51,022 nt of DNA. Origin: an uncultured bacterium (GTDB lineage: Bacteria; Hydrogenedentota; Hydrogenedentia; Hydrogenedentales; SLHB01). The notes under the pieces are model-generated. The model made no database searches and was not told where the DNA came from. It was given only the letters and a program-made list of their open reading frames with translations. The DNA lies in the NCBI GenBank assembly GCA_937928585.1, contig CALEZK010000361.1:1-51022 (forward strand), in the 5' to 3' direction. The translations under genes were made by a program, and so were the position numbers. Within the stretch, counting starts at the first letter, position 1. Each line of letters opens with the position of its first letter. This document shows positions 16,870-25,503 of this stretch, piece by piece.

Positions 16870-19380
16870 ATGCTAGAGAAAACTAACGAGAAAATACTGC
16901 CGATCGCGATTGAGCAGGAAATGAAGACCTCGTTCATGGACTATTCCATGAGCGTTATCGTGAGCCGCGCGTTGCCGGACGTGCGCGATGGTCTGAAACC
17001 CGTGCACCGGCGCATTCTGTATGCAATGCACGAGTTGGGCCTGGTGCATAACCGGGCGTACCGCAAATCGGCGTCGATCGTCGGTGAAACGATGGGTAAC
17101 TACCACCCCCACGGCGATCAGGCCATTTACGACACGCTTGTTCGCATGGCGCAGCCTTGGTCGATGCGGTATCCGCTGATTGACGGTCAGGGTAACTTCG
17201 GATCCGTGGACGGCGACAGCCCAGCGGCGATGCGATATACCGAATCGCGCATGGCCGGTATCACGGCGCAGATGCTCGCGGATATCGAGAAACAGACCGT
17301 CGACGTGACGGACAACTACGACTCGCGCCTCAAAGAACCCACGGTGCTGCCGTCAGCGATTCCGAATCTCTTGGTAAACGGCTCGTATGGTATCGCGGTC
17401 GGCATGGCCACGAGCTGCCCGCCGCACAACATCACTGAAGTTTGCGATGCGGTGATTCACTACATCGACAATCCCGAGTGCAACACGAACGATCTCATGC
17501 GATTCGTGGAAGGGCCGGACTTCCCAACGGGCGGCATCATCTACGGGCGCGAGGGCCTGCCCGAGGCGTATCACACCGGCCGCGGCAAGATTACCGTGCG
17601 CGCGAAGGTGGTGTTTGAGCACGACAAGGCTTCCGGCAAGGACCGCATCATCGTTACGGAAATCCCGTATCAGGTGAACAAATCCCGTCTGATCGAAACC
17701 ATCGCCGGGCTCGTGCGCGAGAAAACGGTTGAAGGCATCACCGACCTGCGCGATGAATCCGACCGCGACGGCATGCGCATTCTTATCGAGGTGCGGAAGG
17801 GCGACGAACCGCAGGTCATTCTCAATCAGCTCTACAAGCACACCCAGATGCAGGAGACGTTCAGCATTCTTATGCTGGCGCTGGTAAACAACCAGCCGCG
17901 CGTCCTGTCGCTGTATGAAGTCATTCATTACTACGTAAAGCACCGCGCGGAGATTGTGAAGCGGCGCACCGAGTTCGATCTGCGCAAAACCGAAGAACGC
18001 GCCCACATCGTCGAAGGCTTGCTGAAGGCGATCGACCATATCGATGAAGTCATCAAAATTATCCGCGCGTCGGAGACACCGGAATCCGCGCGCGACGCGT
18101 TGATTGCGCGATTCGACTTCACGCACATCCAGGCGAACGAAATCCTGGCGATGCGCCTGCGCCGATTGACGGGCCTCGAACGCGAAGAGCTTGAGAAGGA
18201 ATATGCGGAACTGCTGAAGTTGATCGAGATGTATAAGCGCATCCTCTCGAGCGAGCGCACGATTCTCGCCGAAGTTCGCAAGGAACTGCTGGCGGTGAAA
18301 GAAAAGTACGGCGATGCGCGCCGGACGCAGATCCTCGGTGAACGCACCGAATTCAGCGTCGAAGACCTGATCGCTGATGAAGAGATGGTCGTGACGGTAT
18401 CCAACATGGGGTACATCAAGCGCGTTCCGGTGGCGGCTTACCGCAAACAAAAGCGCGGCGGCAAAGGCATCACCGGCATGGACACGAAGGAAGAAGATTT
18501 TGTTTCTGACCTTTTCGTGGCGTCCGCGCACCAATACATGCTGTTCTTCACCAACAAGGGCCGCGTCTACTGGCGCAAAGTCCACGAACTCCCGAAGGCA
18601 AGCCGCACTGCGCGCGGTCGCGCGATTGTAAATGTGCTTGACCTGTCCGGCGACGAGATTGTGACCGCGTGCCTTCCCGTGCGTAACCTCGAGGAAGAGA
18701 ACAAATACATCTTCATGGTCACCGCGATGGGCACCGTCAAAAAGACGGAACTAAAAGCGTTTAGCAACCCGCGCGCGACCGGCATTATCGCGATCAACCT
18801 CGAGAAGAGCGATACGCTTATCGATGTACAGATCACCTCGGGCGAAGACAACATCCTCATCGCCACATACCTCGGCATGTCAATCCGCTTCCCCGAGAAA
18901 GACGTGCGGCCCATGGGTCGCACCGCGGGCGGCGTGATTGGCATCCGTCTGGAAGAAGGCGACCGCGTCATCGGCGTATCCACTGCCGGCGACGACAAGA
19001 CGGTCCTCAGCGTTGTCGAGAACGGTTATGGTAAGCGCACGCAAGTGGGCGAGTATCGCCTGCAGCACCGCGGCGGTTCCGGCATCATCAACATCAAGAC
19101 GACGGAGCGCAATGGAAACGTCGTCGCGATGATGACTGTGGATGACAGCGATGACATCGTCGTGGTCAGCACTGACGGCATCGTGATGCGTTGTTCGGTG
19201 AAGGATATCCGCACCATCGGCCGCAACACGCAAGGCGTGAAGGTAATGACACCCGGAACGGGCGCGAAGGTAAGCGCCGTTGCGCGCGCCATCCCGGAAG
19301 AGAAGGCCGACGAAGCCGCCGAGGCGGCCGCACCCGAAGGCGCGGTGACAACGGACGACGCCGGGGACGAAGAAGAATAG
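16870..19380 (+). CDS. gyrA: DNA gyrase subunit A
   Basis: Motifs are [27 protein letters not shown] and AMRYTE (active-site Tyr), with C-terminal beta-pinwheel repeats and an acidic tail. Confidence 0.97.
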
Positions 19381-19442
19381 GTATCGCCCGTTGACGATTA
19401 CGAATGGCAGGCAGGAAGTAACTTGGACAAGGTTGAGTTGGA

Positions 19443-20837
19443 ATGACTGTGCAATACCGAATTGAACGCGACACCATGGGCGAGATGCAGGTCCCTTCGG
19501 ACCGTTATTACGGCTGTCAGACTGCGCGGTCGCTCGTGCACTTCGCGATCGGTACCGAGAAAATGCCACGTGAGCTGATTCGCGCGCTGGGCATTCTGAA
19601 AAAGGCCGCCGCGCTCACGAATCTCGACTTGGGCCTACTCAAGCCCGAGCTGTGCACAATCATCTGCGCGGCAGCGGACGAAGTCATCGACGGGAAACTC
19701 GACGAACACTTTCCGCTGTCCGTATGGCAGACGGGCAGTGGCACGCAGACGAACATGAACGCGAACGAAGTGATCTCGAACCGCGCCATCGAAATGGCCG
19801 GCGGCGAGATGGGCAGCAAGAAGCCCGTGCATCCCAATGACCACGTGAACATGTCGCAATCGTCGAACGATACCTTTCCCACGGGCATGAGCATCGCCGC
19901 TTGCGAACAGATTCACCACCTGCTGTTGCCAGCGCTGCGCACGCTGCGCGACACGCTGGCGAAGAAAGCGAAATCGTTCGATGGCATCATCAAGATTGGC
20001 CGCACGCACCTTATGGACGCGACACCGCTCACCCTGGGGCAGGAATTCTCGGGCTACGTGCAGCAGCTTACCAACGGCATTGAACGCGTCGAATCCACGA
20101 TGCCGCGCCTGTATGAACTCGCGCTCGGCGGCACCGCTGTCGGCACGGGCCTGAACACGAAGAAGGGGTATGACGTGAAGGTCGCCGCGAAGATCGCGGA
20201 ACTCACGGGCCTGCCGTTCGTCACCGCGCCGAACAAGTTTGAATCACTCGCCGCGCACGACGCCCTGGTTATGACGCACGGGGCATTGAAGACCGTCGCG
20301 TGCAGCCTCATGAAAATCGCGAACGACGTGCGCTGGCTCGCCAGCGGTCCGCGCTGCGGCCTCGGCGAGATTACCATCCCTGAAAATGAACCGGGATCCT
20401 CGATCATGCCGGGGAAAGTAAACCCGACACAGAGCGAGGCGATCACCATGATCGCCGCACAGGTGATTGGTAACGACGTTGCGGTAAACGTCGGCGGAGC
20501 ATCCGGCAATTTCGAGCTGAACGTGTTCAAGCCGGTGATCATCTACAACGTCCTGCAATCCATCCGCCTTATCGCGGATGGCGCGCACTCTTTCAACGAA
20601 CATTGCGCCGAAGGCATCGAGCCGGATAAAGCGCGCGTGGACGAACTACTTCATAAATCGCTGATGCTCGTCACCGCGCTGAACAGCAAGATCGGCTACG
20701 ATAACGCCGCCAAAATCGCCAAAACAGCGCACAAGAACGGCACCACGCTCAAGGAAGAAGCAATTAACCTCGGCCTGCTCACCGCAGCCGAGTTCGATGC
20801 AACGGTCGACCCGTCGAAGATGATAGGGCCGTCGTAA
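19443..20837 (+). CDS. fumC: class II fumarate hydratase
   Basis: 464 aa, with the [16 protein letters not shown] signature and the SSNDTFPT block. Confidence 0.97.
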
Positions 20838-20945
20838 GACCTCCGACAGGAAGCCTAAATACGTTGGACAGAAGCCGACATCGCCGAAAACTTAGCCCGC
20901 CAAAATCGGGTTATCGGTTATGTCGAGAACGCGTGATCAAGTCCG

Positions 20946-21392
20946 ATGAGCACGAATCAGCAACAGTATAAGCCTGCCGATTATGCCGGCTGCTTTGGCT
21001 GCGCGATTACCGTAGTCTTCCTGCTGAGTTCGATTGGAACTATGTCCGCCTTCCTCCACCGCATGTTTGAGTATAACCCAACCGTTAGTCCTGAGTTTGA
21101 AGCTGCGCTCAGTCTGATCTTCTTGGTTATCGGGCTCGGCATATGCATTGCCTCTTGTGTCCCCTTCTTGGTGCCCTCAGACAAGCTAAGATCTGAAAAG
21201 TATAAGAATGCAATAAGCGATACCTTTGAGTTCGCAATACTCGCGCAGTTTATTCCTCCGGTTATCTCCGTAATAAATGGGCTAACTACAGGTGACCCCA
21301 TGACTTCGATCATTCTCGGTTTGGTATCAATCTTTGCCCTAGTTTTTCAGTCGTCGCGTTTGGATTCGTTGCGCAGCATCAAACCAGAGTAG
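20946..21392 (+). CDS. small 4-TM membrane protein, paralog 1 of 3 (no family recognised)
   Basis: 148 aa with four hydrophobic segments. It shares MFEY-x-P-x-(V/I)SPEFE and (F/L)IP..(I/L)S(V/F)(I/V)NG(L/I)(T/L)T blocks with ORF 21621-22079. G+C looks lower than the flanks. Confidence 0.6.
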   Translation: MSTNQQQYKPADYAGCFGCAITVVFLLSSIGTMSAFLHRMFEYNPTVSPEFEAALSLIFLVIGLGICIASCVPFLVPSDKLRSEKYKNAISDTFEFAILAQFIPPVISVINGLTTGDPMTSIILGLVSIFALVFQSSRLDSLRSIKPE

Positions 21393-21439
21393 ATAAGATA
21401 ACAGCCAGAACGTACATTTATCGGGTCCACGCGCGAACG

Positions 21440-21562
21440 ATCGCAAGGACAGTGCACGATAATGGCGCCACGCTCAAGAAAGAAGCAATTAACCTAGGCC
21501 TGCTCACCGCAGCCGAGTTTGATGCAACGGTTGACCCGTCGAAGATGATTGGGCCATCGTAG
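21440..21562 (+). repeat. relic duplicate of the fumC 3' end (non-functional gene fragment)
   Basis: 21454-21562 aligns base for base, without gaps, with 20729-20837 (the last 36 codons plus the stop of fumC). Similarity fades upstream to about 21430. Confidence 0.9.
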
Positions 21563-21620
21563 AAAATGCGGAGCTTGGCTTAGAGTAGAAGTTTCTCCAA
21601 AAAACGGGCAGAGAATTTCG

Positions 21621-22079
21621 ATGGACACGATCCAGTCTCCAGCCGAACCAGCGGATAGTGGGCCGATTTTGGGTTGTACCTTGTCAGTGCTAATACTGTT
21701 GCTGGTCGTAACGTTTACGATTCTCGGAACTTTCTCCGCGTTATTGAACGGAATGTTCGAATACCACCCCTTCATCAGTCCGGAGTTCGAAACCAATCTC
21801 GCCTTCGTTATCCTAGTCACAGGAGCAGGCGTCAGTATTTTGACCTGTACACTATTTTGGATGCACAACCGTAGAACGGTTTCCATTTACAATCGGCGGG
21901 CAACTAACGATGCGGTAGCTTTTGCCCTGTTTGGGCAGCTAATCCCCACGTTCCTATCTTTCGTAAATGGAATTCTTACTGTCGAATTCTTGAATTCTTG
22001 GCTGCTCGGCACTATTTCCCTCACGGGCATTCTTCTTGTGCTTTATATCAGTTCGGATCGCCCGCAATCAAAACAATGA
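21621..22079 (+). CDS. small 4-TM membrane protein, paralog 2 of 3
   Basis: ORF 21549-22079 starts at a TTG inside the fumC relic. I prefer ATG 21621 (MDTIQSPAEP). LNGMFEYHPFISPEFETNLAFVILVTGAGVSILTC parallels paralog 1. Confidence 0.6.
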   Translation: MDTIQSPAEPADSGPILGCTLSVLILLLVVTFTILGTFSALLNGMFEYHPFISPEFETNLAFVILVTGAGVSILTCTLFWMHNRRTVSIYNRRATNDAVAFALFGQLIPTFLSFVNGILTVEFLNSWLLGTISLTGILLVLYISSDRPQSKQ

Positions 22080-22156
22080 GCGTCTACAAGCCACTGGACG
22101 ACATTTAACGGAAGCAGCTCTACGGCTTAAGACAACAACGAATCCACGGAGACAGT

Positions 22157-22561
22157 ATGTCCGAGAAAAGAACGCAAACTCCCCTGGCACGCGCGCAAAT
22201 TGTGGCCATTGGCATACTGATGTCCATGATTTCGATGGCCGCGTTGGGTGTTGTCTTTGCAATTGGGTTAATCGATTCGAATGCAGCCATTGAAGACGTT
22301 GCTACATCAAAGATTGTCGCAAACGTACTGCTTGCGGTTGGGTTCATCGCCTTGGGTCTTTCTTACGGCTTGCGCACCAAACTTGCTAAAAAAGACCAAT
22401 TCACAAGCGTGGTCATCGGCATGGCGGTGGGTGAGTTTCCCGCGGTACTCGCGCTGGCGAACGGTCTCCTTACAGAAAACTACGTCGCTTCACTTGTGCT
22501 GGGGGTAACCGCTATTGCTTCGGCGCTCCTGCACTTTCCTCGCGCTTCGGAGTTTCGGTAG
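22157..22561 (+). CDS. small 4-TM membrane protein, paralog 3 of 3 (most divergent)
   Basis: 134 aa with the same TM layout. FPAVLALANGLLTENYVASLVLG parallels FIPPVISVINGLTTGDPMTSIILG of paralog 1. Confidence 0.5.
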   Translation: MSEKRTQTPLARAQIVAIGILMSMISMAALGVVFAIGLIDSNAAIEDVATSKIVANVLLAVGFIALGLSYGLRTKLAKKDQFTSVVIGMAVGEFPAVLALANGLLTENYVASLVLGVTAIASALLHFPRASEFR

Positions 22562-23303
22562 CAGAACTTTCCACTACGATTTTGCCGTGAGACTTCCTGG
22601 CAAGGTGGCTTTCGGTGAAATCAATCGCAATCTGAACCTCATTTGTCGCTTTCACGGACAAGTCGCCCTCAGCAATGAGCCCCCCGTCCGGTTGCTGAAC
22701 GACAACGCGATACACACCCGCCGGCACGTTTGGAATTCTGAAGCCACCATCTTCATCGGTTACGGTAAACAGATCATGCTCGAAAACGTAGATCCACCCG
22801 ACCATCCACGGGTGAATATCGCAAAGTAGTTGGATTGGTCGACCTTCCCGCTCGCGCTTAATCGCGTGCTCGTACTTTCCTTCCGCAGGGGTCATCACAT
22901 TGAACAGATTCTCCACGGTCGTAGTAACGCTCCGAACATTGTGATTCGCGGGTTCCTCATTCGAAATGGAAACCACTTGACCCGCGCGAACCGCCACAAC
23001 CCGTGGCACAAACTCGCCGTCAACTTGAGAGATACGTGCAGGGAGCGGCAGCTCTGTGGACGAAGGCGCGCTAACAGCGGCTTGCAGGAACACGACGGCC
23101 TGTGGAAGGCCGCTGTTCCTTCTACTCACTTCGAAAAGCGGTCGGTGCCGGCCATCGTTGTCGGCAAACGTGCGGGTCGGGATTGTTCCTGTGAATCGAA
23201 CTATGCCCGCCACCGCTGAAAATTCATCCGCCGCAAACGCGGAGCACGACGCGCATAGGAATCCAATTCCAACAAGATGTCTTACACGAAGCGGCTTAAA
23301 CAT
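22512..23303 (-). CDS. secreted cupredoxin-like protein with a C-terminal carboxypeptidase-regulatory-like (transthyretin-fold) domain
   Basis: It has a signal peptide (LVGIGFLCASCSAFA). FVPRVVAVRAGQVVSISNEEPANHNV..CDIHPWMVG resembles a type-1 Cu site (His..Cys-x2-His-x2-Met, as in amicyanin CTPHPFM). TDEDGGFRIPNVPAGVYRVVV is CarboxypepD_reg-like. Confidence 0.6.
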   Translation of the reverse strand: MFKPLRVRHLVGIGFLCASCSAFAADEFSAVAGIVRFTGTIPTRTFADNDGRHRPLFEVSRRNSGLPQAVVFLQAAVSAPSSTELPLPARISQVDGEFVPRVVAVRAGQVVSISNEEPANHNVRSVTTTVENLFNVMTPAEGKYEHAIKREREGRPIQLLCDIHPWMVGWIYVFEHDLFTVTDEDGGFRIPNVPAGVYRVVVQQPDGGLIAEGDLSVKATNEVQIAIDFTESHLARKSHGKIVVESSATETPKREESAGAPKQ

Positions 23304-23319
23304 GCGATTGTGACTTTCA

Positions 23320-23342
23320 TGGTAAGTCGAATGAGTTTACCA
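23320..23342. promoter_or_regulatory. inverted repeat TGGTAA-N11-TTACCA, candidate operator (possibly NikR)
   Basis: TGGTAA is at 23320-23325 and TTACCA at 23337-23342. The repeat lies in the 137-bp divergent region between the cupredoxin-like gene (start 23303) and nikR (start 23441). Confidence 0.3.
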
Positions 23343-23440
23343 AAGTTTCCCGGAAAGACCGTGTTCAATACCGCTCCGGATGGTCTGTGCGGTATCATTT
23401 CGGTAGGCGACATTGAGCATGCAACCAAGCGAGGAAGGCC

Positions 23441-23857
23441 ATGTCCGATCTTGAACGTTTGAGTATATCCCTTGAAAAGCCGCTGCAGGCGCGGCTCGAA
23501 AAGCTGGTGAAGGACTCGCACTACACCAACCGTTCGGAATTCATCCGCGATCTGATTCGGAACAAGATCGTCGAGCGGGAATGGGAACGCGACGAGGAAG
23601 CGCTGGGCACCGTGACCCTGCTCTACGACCACCACACGCGCGGTCTGAGCGATCGGCTGACGCATCTGCAGCACGATCACCATAGCAACATCCTCGCCAC
23701 CACCCACGTGCATCTCACCCACGAACTCTGCGCGGAGATGATCATGATCAAAGGGAAGGCAAAACTCATCCGCGCCATGGCGGACGCAATGTCCGGCGAA
23801 AAAGGCGTGCTCCACGCCGCGCTATCGCTCAGTTCGATCGGAAAGAAATTTTCGTAA
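23441..23857 (+). CDS. nikR: nickel-responsive transcriptional regulator NikR
   Basis: The N-terminus is ribbon-helix-helix (RLSISLEKPLQARLEKLV..YTNRSEFIRDLIR). The C-terminal domain has LQHDHH..THVHLTHELCAEMI, containing the His/Cys residues expected for the high-affinity Ni site. Confidence 0.9.
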   Translation: MSDLERLSISLEKPLQARLEKLVKDSHYTNRSEFIRDLIRNKIVEREWERDEEALGTVTLLYDHHTRGLSDRLTHLQHDHHSNILATTHVHLTHELCAEMIMIKGKAKLIRAMADAMSGEKGVLHAALSLSSIGKKFS

Positions 23858-23870
23858 GCCTGTGTTGACT

Positions 23871-23892
23871 GCGGTAGCTTGCTACCGCTTTT
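23871..23892 (+). terminator. rho-independent terminator after nikR
   Basis: GCGGTAGC-TT-GCTACCGC followed by TTTTCC. Confidence 0.55.
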
Positions 23893-23961
23893 CCTGAGCA
23901 AGCTTGCGCGCGGATTTCAAACCAATGGCGTTGCGAACTGTCTCGCAGTCAGCAAATCGTA

Positions 23962-24498
23962 TTAGAAATCATCCCGGGCATTTAATTCGTCAATCGGAAA
24001 CGACAAGATTGCTCTCAGAAATACAGGATTGGATTCCCGAAGAAAGTTTGCCTTTGAACACCATTCATGATTCGTGGCGCGGTCAATCACTTCGTGCTTG
24101 ACGGGGTTTACATGCGTGTGGTACAGGCGTGCAAAATAGCTCCGCTCATGTGTGAGGCAAGTGTTGCGATACCGAATCATTCTCCCTTGTATCTTGTCTT
24201 CGGAATTTACGGCGCGCGCCGTAATTGAGTGCACTGCTTGCATCATCGATTTCAAAGACTCCGGATTCTCAAGTGCCTTTGCAACGAAGTGATAATGATT
24301 CTGAAGGACTGTCAACGCGTATAGGCGCCATGAATATTTGTCGGCCTGTCGTAGAAGTTCGTTTCGCAGTTAGGAGAACCTGCTAGGAGAGCTGAAGAAT
24401 CGCTCTTTGTAGTAGGTGCCGCCTGTCACAAAATAGAGAGCGTTCGGAACAAATAGATGCGTCGGGCCATGCGCCCATTCCGTGTATTCAGTTTTCAT
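23962..24498 (-). pseudogene. IS200/RAYT-like Y1 (HUH) transposase homolog interrupted by an in-frame TAA
   Basis: Reverse-strand reading from ATG (complement of 24496-24498) gives MKTEYTEWAHGPTHLFVPNALYFVTGGTYYKERFFSSPSRFS-stop(TAA, complement of 24370-24372)-LRNELLRQADKYSWRLYALTVLQNHYHFVAKAL..YHTHVNPVKHEV.. in one frame. The HUH motif is HYHFV and the Tyr block is Y-x-H-x-NPVKH. The ORF track shows only the 3' part (23962-24315, TTG start). Confidence 0.7.
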
Positions 24499-24606
24499 GC
24501 AATACGAACCGATTCGTTGGCCCCTTCTCCGCGCATTTGGTTCAAGTTACGTCACTAGCTTCGAAACCGCGAGCTACCGCAATCCCACATGGTGGGTTTA
24601 TGAATT

Positions 24607-25428
24607 TCAGCGACGCCGTGCGTGCTTTCGCGACTGGTTTCGGAGCAGGTGCCAGAGTTTTGGTTCGAGTGCGCGGGGGCCGGCCTCCAGGACTACGAAG
24701 GTCACATCATCGTGGGTGAATTCGGGGGCGCCCGTGTGTTGCGCCAGTAGTCCTTCCAGGTTGCGTGCGAGCACGTCGATTGGTTTGTCGCGCACCGTGT
24801 CCAGGGCCTCGGCGAGCCGTCCGCTGCCAAACAGTTCGTGATTGGCGTCTGCCGCTTCCAACACGCCATCGGAATAGACAAACAGGCGGTCGCCCTCTTG
24901 GAGTGTGCGCGTGCCTGTATCGAACGCGGCGGTATCAGACACGCCGAAGGGCACATTGCGCACGCCCTTTCCAACATTGTCGACTTCCAAGGGCAACCAG
25001 CGCGATTCGCCACGCGGCAGAATAAAGGCCGGCGGATGACCCGCGTAGCAGAAGCGAAGTTCCGCCTTCATCATGTCGTAGCTGAGGCAGACCGCGGTGG
25101 TGAGCGCTTCGAGTCCGAACAGGGACGCGCGCTCGTTCATCGTGTGAAATACGCGCGCGGGATCGTGCCGGCCCATGTTACGGCGCATGGTGCCGTGCAG
25201 CCATGCGCCCACCTGCGCGACCTGTTCGCCGTGGCCGGCGACATCCGCGAGGCACATGCGCGATATTACGCCTGCCGCGCAAGCGGAGGAGTAGTAGACG
25301 TCCCCGCCCTTCTTTCCGCCACAGGCGCGCGAGAACAGCACTCCGCGCAGCCCCGGCATCACCAATTCGGTGTACACGCTGCCGTTGCCGCCCCAGATTT
25401 CGCTGCAGATGAGTTCTTGTGTGGGCAT
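24607..25428 (-). CDS. PP2C-family (SpoIIE/RsbU-type) serine phosphatase with no sensor domain
   Basis: GGDVYY, LADVAGHGEQVA, FCYAGHPP, LFVYSDGVLEA and THDDVTFVVL are the standard SpoIIE-domain blocks. Confidence 0.85.
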   Translation of the reverse strand: MPTQELICSEIWGGNGSVYTELVMPGLRGVLFSRACGGKKGGDVYYSSACAAGVISRMCLADVAGHGEQVAQVGAWLHGTMRRNMGRHDPARVFHTMNERASLFGLEALTTAVCLSYDMMKAELRFCYAGHPPAFILPRGESRWLPLEVDNVGKGVRNVPFGVSDTAAFDTGTRTLQEGDRLFVYSDGVLEAADANHELFGSGRLAEALDTVRDKPIDVLARNLEGLLAQHTGAPEFTHDDVTFVVLEAGPRALEPKLWHLLRNQSRKHARRR

Positions 25429-25503
25429 GACGTCAGGTGAATTCGCGGCAGGGGCGAAACGATGTCTGAAACCGCGACGAAAGAGACCCAGCGACCGGAA
25501 AAA

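Follow-up and report, generated by a model that had tools for sequence, protein, structure and literature searches.

The 3' end of fumC, the gene for a class II fumarate hydratase, was present twice in the 51,022-nt stretch of DNA analysed here (the window; contig CALEZK010000361.1 of assembly GCA_937928585.1), which comes from an uncultured bacterium placed in Candidatus Hydrogenedentes/Hydrogenedentota by the names on its fumC homologues. The intact fumC (19443-20837, on the forward strand, as are the repeat copies, spacers, mem genes, and post-stop blocks described below; 464 aa; Pfam Lyase_1, E = 4.6e-115, plus FumaraseC_C) was followed by a gene for a small membrane protein (memA, 20946-21392), by a relic of the fumC 3' end (21429-21562, 134 nt, a pseudogene fragment), and by a second membrane-protein gene paralogous to the first (memB, 21621-22079). 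The explanation that we prefer, and hold with moderate confidence, is that an old tandem duplication gave rise to memA and memB and left the relic as its scar, and that the 3' part of this scar was later homogenised with functional fumC sequence. The repeat would most likely be an ordinary genome scar and not a mobile element.

The repeated 3' end of fumC

The two copies formed a direct repeat of 122 nt (20715-20836 and 21440-21561) with 89% identity; its ungapped alignment and its spacing of 725 nt had been described in the original prediction. This was the sole long repeat within the window, and a search of the organism's own assembly, a fragmented metagenome-assembled genome (MAG; 4.95 Mb in 696 contigs, 87.5% complete), gave a genome-wide copy number of two. 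Weaker similarity, still without gaps, reached upstream to 20704 in the live copy and 21429 in the relic and then faded, close to the limit at about 21430 reported before. Taken to this limit, the live copy (20704-20837) comprised the last 44 codons of fumC plus the stop codon, and both copies can be divided into a 5' zone 1 (20704-20742 and 21429-21467) and a 3' zone 2 (20743-20837 and 21468-21562).

Reading the copies codon by codon reproduced exactly the differences that had been listed: five third-position changes in the last 26 sense codons (CTC/CTA, TTC/TTT, GTC/GTT, ATA/ATT, and CCG/CCA), all of them synonymous, and a sixth from stop to stop (TAA/TAG). The first difference 5' of this synonymous-only stretch was a replacement (GAA/AAA) and further replacements lay upstream of it, also in line with the earlier description; in the N-terminal third of the relic they affected residues invariant in all fumarases examined. 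Once translated, the relic scored 41.3 bits against Pfam PF10415 FumaraseC_C (gathering cut-off 32.5; profile positions 14-53 of 54), and the program-made list of open reading frames (ORFs) contained a mechanical ORF for it from GTG 21452 to TAG 21562. The spacers 3' of the two stop codons (spacer 1, 108 nt, 20838-20945; spacer 2, 58 nt, 21563-21620) displayed no significant similarity to each other (p = 0.5), as had been stated. The observation of the repeat is confirmed.

The same arrangement was found in at least 12 contigs from JGI, NCBI, ENA, and Logan, obtained with different assemblers from at least six sample sets. In these independent contigs, one of which was a 318-kb contig from JGI, the gene order gyrA-fumC-memA-(relic)-memB-memC was conserved and positions 20571-21844 were identical in sequence. 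Most of them had one base different from the window, and a second strain, about 1% diverged, presented zero differences within 20571-21844. Since contigs from different assemblers share an identical arrangement, the misassembly that the original prediction had worried about is effectively excluded.

Collinear units and a family of small membrane proteins

The 725-nt unit at 20704-21428 was collinear, head-to-tail, with the following 687 nt (21429-22115). Along the alignment of the two units the fumC tail was 93% identical in its 3' part, the spacers had no similarity, the mem genes were 45-62% identical at the nucleotide level, and a block located after the stop codon of each mem gene matched at 19 of 24 positions. 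The products of memA (148 aa) and memB (152 aa) are paralogues (38% aa identity, E = 2.8e-23), and that of memC (22157-22561, 134 aa) is a more distant paralogue of both; all three contain four hydrophobic segments. The post-stop blocks (AGCCA..ACATTTAWCGG) began 10 and 9 nt past the stops of memA and memB, respectively (block A, AGCCA..ACATTTATCGG, 21403-21424; block B, AGCCACTGGACGACATTTAACGG, 22089-22111, the end of the second duplicated unit), and their local alignment reached a score of 20 (shuffle p = 0.012). The relic started at 21429, 4 nt past the end of block A. This layout is consistent with a tandem duplication of the type A-[B-C]-[B-C]-D whose left breakpoint would lie 134 nt inside fumC. 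The original prediction, which regarded memA as the cargo of a cassette, had missed that memB is its paralogue and that the whole unit is collinear with the next.

No known family was assigned to memA, memB, or memC, and memA matched no family of Pfam, NCBIfam, or PHROG. The memA gene was found only in its own species: genes of the memA/memB type were absent from 40 relatives, no variant of memA occurred elsewhere among 5.8 billion proteins, and word-index searches with memA and memB matched only themselves. A profile search detected five representatives of the mem family in 1.84 billion proteins. Among these, a metagenome contig (ERZ27298572, L034; 790 nt, 46.7% G+C) carried two adjacent genes of the memA/memB type with a stop-start overlap (ATGA) and no fumC fragment between them; all pairwise identities of these genes with memA and memB were 34-40%, so that no orthologous pairing stood out. 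A search of a genome collection with the memC-type alignment gave 87 pattern matches, of which 0 were confirmed. As a side observation, memA, memB, and memC make up a tiny and fast-evolving family of mini-proteins with four transmembrane segments next to fumC, its orthologues being just 40-45% identical where the fumC orthologues of genomes of the same genus are 92-94% identical.

In three relatives a memC-type gene followed fumC directly, at distances of 7, 12, and 126 nt, and memC matched the counterpart gene in one of the relatives (G002) with E = 1e-29. One genome of the same genus had no memC-type gene after fumC. Among the relatives, the DNA downstream of fumC held a memC-type gene, a carboxypeptidase-regulatory-like gene, or unrelated genes. 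Because memC-type genes directly follow fumC in those three relatives, the succession of fumC and a small membrane gene appears to be an old arrangement in the clade, with memC as the putative ancestral fumC-adjacent gene. A duplication retaining the start of that next gene would therefore readily include the end of fumC.

Divergence along the collinear units

The different parts of the unit were not equally diverged. Between memA and memB the proportion of synonymous differences (pS) was 0.75, which means saturation of the synonymous rate (dS), and the non-synonymous rate (dN) was 0.64. A dN of 0.61 was obtained for memC and its orthologue in a species whose fumC differs with a dS of 1.04. 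As the divergence of memA and memB equals that of memC orthologues between species at a fumC dS of about 1.0, the duplication would date back to roughly the time when the species of the genus split. The original prediction had argued against a simple recent tandem duplication and this held, memA, memB, and the spacers being diverged to saturation.

Within the relic, zone 1 (its first 39 nt) was 36% diverged from the live copy, with dS 0.75 and dN 0.28 over the first 17 codons; these values fit a neutral copy evolving against a constrained partner over the age of the duplication. Zone 2 (the last 95 nt) was only 7% diverged, with dS 0.30 and dN 0 over the last 26 codons. The maximum chi-square breakpoint was located after 20742 (14 differences in 39 nt vs. 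7 in 95 nt; permutation p = 0.002), and the contrast between zones gave Fisher p values of 1e-4, of 0.017 with adjacent changes collapsed, and of 0.03 at third positions only. Zone 2 thus displayed a dS of 0.30 while the mem genes and spacers were saturated, and because divergence differs in this way along the unit, a later homogenising event is needed. The earlier view that the high-identity part of the relic is younger than the surrounding DNA was in this respect correct.

Both tails carried GCC (Ala) in the motif TAAEF, where all 17 relatives examined have Glu. Since this Ala codon is common to both tails, the homogenisation would post-date a lineage-specific substitution and the relic would derive from the fumC of this very lineage. 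This points away from the proposal that the two tails came from different genomes.

A probable duplication followed by homogenisation

Under the explanation preferred here, the order of events would be as follows. In this clade fumC would have been directly followed by a gene for a small membrane protein with four transmembrane segments. A duplication with its left end 134 nt inside fumC and its right end about 35 nt past the membrane gene would have given the product fumC-[tail-spacer-mem-post]-[tail'-spacer'-mem'-post'], in which the first tail remained part of the live gene; the second, cut off from the promoter and the 5' part of fumC, became a fragment. Then memA, memB, and the spacers would have diverged to saturation, and the 3' part of the fragment, about 95 nt, would later have been overwritten by functional fumC sequence. 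Zone 2 would be only 7% diverged, with mostly synonymous differences, because of this overwriting. Interlocus gene conversion is most likely the simplest homogenising mechanism, and the likeliest route would be intragenomic conversion from the live tail 725 nt away; such conversion, and its dependence on the identity of the paralogues, has been reviewed (PMC3924818). Homologous recombination may, after the conversion, have put the allele of another strain in place of the live tail, a step that needs no function of the relic and that is put forward because imports of this kind are visible in fumC (six differences between strains at 19629-19685, described below). The relic fragment probably has no function: it had no Rfam match (E <= 1, over 19000-24500) and no promoter or terminator match.

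Several observations weigh against this explanation. The homology stops right at the end of the coding sequence, with the stop codon. Conversion on its own does not predict such an edge, although it is expected if the identity required for recombination persists only where the partner is constrained. Today the copies share at most 23 identical nt in a row, at which conversion would be inefficient. No single-nucleotide polymorphisms (SNPs) were present in 20571-21844 among the available strains, all of a single species, so that conversion was not caught in the act. The excess of differences in zone 1 comes partly from adjacent multi-base changes. In zone 2, six of the seven differences were synonymous or stop-to-stop, and the closest outgroup (fumC 94% identical in aa) shared the live state at five of these six; consequently, the zone 2 changes appear to lie on the lineage of the relic. 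The relic-specific states were mostly GC-to-AT. Their derived position makes the pattern somewhat odder, but the outgroup comparison is limited by an outgroup at dS ~1 and by a codon preference that favours the live states.

How unusual this synonymous pattern is was assessed by simulation of a neutral relic and a constrained live copy, under several settings for transitions and GC bias. One replacement or fewer in seven differences arose with p = 0.012-0.045 for an objectively delimited zone (20745-20837), and with p = 0.002-0.009 for the window that the original prediction had chosen post hoc. The claim that neutral decay is incompatible with the pattern stands only to the extent that the pattern is marginally unusual; it was too strong because the live gene can contribute only synonymous differences. 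Similarly, the synonymous bias lends some weight to the idea that both tails once belonged to functional fumC genes, whereas the foreign donor invoked for it is unsupported. The synonymous bias in the relic is suggestive, not established. For scans of genomes this carries a caution, as a synonymous-only pattern between a relic and its source is less surprising than it looks when the live partner adds synonymous changes only. In annotation, 21429-21562 should be recorded as a fumC pseudogene fragment and not as the 40-aa gene called by one pipeline, and the three genes memA, memB, and memC are best described as one tandem family, specific to the lineage, that expanded beside fumC.

Alternative explanations

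The history put forward in the original prediction was a cassette of about 0.7 kb, with its own fumC tail and memA, that came from another genome or allele, entered at the 3' end of fumC and displaced the native tail, which became the relic. Insertion could have been site-specific (of the att type, as for e14 in icd) or could have followed homology-facilitated illegitimate recombination. We consider this history unlikely. It would account for the synonymous-only last 26 codons and for the sharp end of homology at the stop codon, and the diverged zone 1 could then represent an arm of the element never used for coding. The fumC 3' end is indeed repeated on both sides of the memA segment, the mem cluster has a lower G+C content (46-50% vs. 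57-62%), the DNA downstream of fumC is variable among relatives, and icd/icdC with e14 offers a precedent (PMC13626634). However, the supposed cargo memA has a paralogue right beside it in the "host" gene memB, and the unit, including its post-stop block, is collinear with the next one. The 725-nt segment carries only memA, and no recombinase was found between the repeats nor among the ORFs scanned within about 10 kb, where the neighbours were gyrB, GNAT, gyrA, NikR, PP2C, DUF1501, SDR, and similar genes. No inverted repeats of at least 30 nt existed in the window.

The examination of the fumC downstream region in relatives that had been proposed as a check also failed to support a cassette. 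No relative had fumC followed by spacer 2 and memB, and the empty site was absent from the relatives and metagenomes examined, a weak test with the closest relative at a fumC dS of about 1; likewise, two degenerate-codon pattern scans of JGI metagenomes for sister lineages with the TAAEF tail gave 0 matches. The lineage-specific Ala codon of both tails would require a donor of nearly the same lineage, yet the divergence between memA and memB is that of orthologues from different species (dN 0.64 vs. a tail dS of 0.30), and the protein collection mentioned above held no memA variant from any other source. With the paralogy of memA and memB, the collinear units, and the lack of a recombinase and of an empty site, neither att-site duplication nor homology-assisted capture is supported. 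An integron gene cassette was considered and rejected too: no integrase occurred among the scanned neighbours and the window had no inverted repeats of the length given above, attC sites not having been searched with a dedicated model.

A scar of a single age, in which no conversion followed the duplication, is likewise improbable. Here the contrast between zones would be the outcome of chance, of clustered multi-base mutations in the 5' part, and of GC-to-AT pressure on G+C-rich third positions. The heterogeneity was indeed weaker when adjacent changes were collapsed (p = 0.017, uncorrected for the choice of breakpoint), the relic-specific states were nearly all GC-to-AT at third positions, which are home to 19 of the 47 G/C sites, and the finding had been picked for its oddity. 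Nevertheless, zone 2 is 93% identical beside saturated spacers and mem genes, whereas for a neutral copy of the age of memA and memB an identity of about 55-60% with the live tail is expected, and the mosaic test gave p = 0.002.

More doubtful still, and in our view very unlikely, is the maintenance of the last 26 codons of the relic by selection. In one version the relic would be a translated upstream ORF or leader of 36-44 codons that conditions the expression of memB, with translation terminating 58 nt before memB and mimicking the fumC end that precedes a downstream membrane gene in the clade. In an indirect version, replacements arising in the relic and copied into fumC by conversion would be purged. 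Such selection would agree with a dN of 0 against a dS of 0.30 in the last 26 codons, with changes apparently on the relic lineage (p = 0.002-0.045), with a frame free of stops and indels over 89 codons, with the call of a 40-aa gene by one annotation pipeline, and with the position of the relic end 58 nt upstream of memB. Against it, the sole start codon, a GTG, is preceded by a poorly spaced AAGGA only 2 nt away; the N-terminal third replaces invariant fumarase residues; no independent role is obvious for 36 aa out of a helical domain; relatives do not conserve a predicted hairpin that has one compensatory pair; and the comparison covers one species. If selection of this sort did act, the relic would be a pseudogene under indirect purifying selection or under direct constraint, a small example of constraint on bacterial pseudogenes.

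Least credible, to a degree that makes it negligible, is an assembly artefact joining strain variants: the genome is a MAG in 696 contigs and one Logan contig terminates at the repeat, but the arrangement recurs unchanged in the independent contigs described above, including that of 318 kb, and the relic is not a strain allele of fumC because its zone 1 replaces residues that are invariant in fumarases.

Comparison with known systems

A tandem duplication of structure A-[B-C]-[B-C]-D leaves a fragment of a gene at its novel junction. The locus resembled such junctions in its two head-to-tail collinear units with the left breakpoint inside a gene, and in that the first copy completes the gene while the second is a headless fragment preceding the duplicated downstream gene. 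It differed from them in its uneven divergence, the similarity of the fumC fragment to its source far exceeding that between the other parts of the two units.

Interlocus conversion and the resulting concerted evolution are known from tufA and tufB of enterobacteria. Silent partial cassettes donate sequence by gene conversion in antigenic variation of the pilS/pilE type. The relic shares with the latter the condition of a promoterless partial copy, with its frame retained open, near an expressed gene; in contrast, the synonymous differences found here imply no protein variation, the encoded enzyme has a housekeeping role, and only one such copy exists. Features in common with interlocus gene conversion (PMC3924818) were the mosaic divergence with a significant breakpoint, the shared derived substitution, and copies 725 nt apart, whereas the target in this case is a 134-nt, probably non-functional fragment instead of a second functional gene.

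For the capture model, the closest known case is icd/icdC around prophage e14 (and phage 21) in Escherichia coli K-12, where the element integrates at the 3' end of the gene and supplies a replacement for it (Hill et al. 1989, as cited and re-analysed in PMC13626634); e14 is a 15-kb element that has its own integrase and excises. In both cases the 3' end of a gene of the tricarboxylic acid cycle is duplicated as a direct repeat, and the downstream copy is a pseudogene fragment whose differences from the live end are mainly conservative or synonymous. Unlike e14, the fumC repeats enclose 590 bp with one membrane-protein gene paralogous to a flanking gene, and the locus lacked a recombinase in the scanned surroundings and an empty site in the relatives examined.

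Other observations around fumC

The reading frame of the relic was open over 21296-21562 (89 codons) and overlapped memA, itself read in another frame, over the last 97 nt of that gene. No ATG, GTG, or TTG preceded 21452 in this frame, a run of five T was present at 21343-21347, and the chance of finding no stop in it was about 0.08. Fusion of memA to the relic by frameshifting was considered and rejected, as no canonical slippery heptamer was seen on reading the sequence. A hairpin predicted at 20802-20835 and 21527-21560 ended at the fumC stop codon, and in it the GTC/GTT and CCG/CCA differences formed a compensatory change from a C-G to a U-A pair. As an RNA element this hairpin was discarded: it was no better than those of shuffled sequences (z = -1.1), and only about half of the relatives had its key pair.

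Spacer 1 (20896-20907) and fumC at 20706-20717, the exact left edge of the duplicated segment, had 12 identical nt in common, CCGCCAAAATCG (shuffle p = 0.01). This short repeat could be a microhomology used in the rearrangement, the trace of an older fragment, or chance. An older fumC relic in front of memC was looked for and discarded, the spacer between memB and memC being unlike the fumC tail (p = 0.8).

Variation between strains was unevenly distributed along the locus. From 20571 to 22712, that is, over the end of fumC and the whole mem cluster, only two or three strain differences occurred in about 2.1 kb, whereas for the same two strains gyrA was 0.8% diverged and the adjacent gene (22512-23303) 4.4-4.7%. 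Such a distribution suggests that the mem cluster was recently swept or transferred and that the neighbouring gene received a divergent import of its own. In fumC, positions 19629-19685 accumulated six SNPs in 57 nt between strains otherwise about 1% apart, five of them synonymous and one Leu/Met, and outside this segment the strain divergence of fumC was about 0.2%. The cluster has the appearance of a short stretch imported by recombination, its donor being a lineage at about 10% divergence.

Further downstream, about 1.6 kb (23858-25503) separated the nikR homologue from the DUF1501 gene, which nearly abut in a genome of the same genus (G001). This interval contained a short ORF (23962-24315) and a gene for a PP2C/SpoIIE phosphatase. 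In another relative (L043) the phosphatase gene was present and adjoined the DUF1501 gene.

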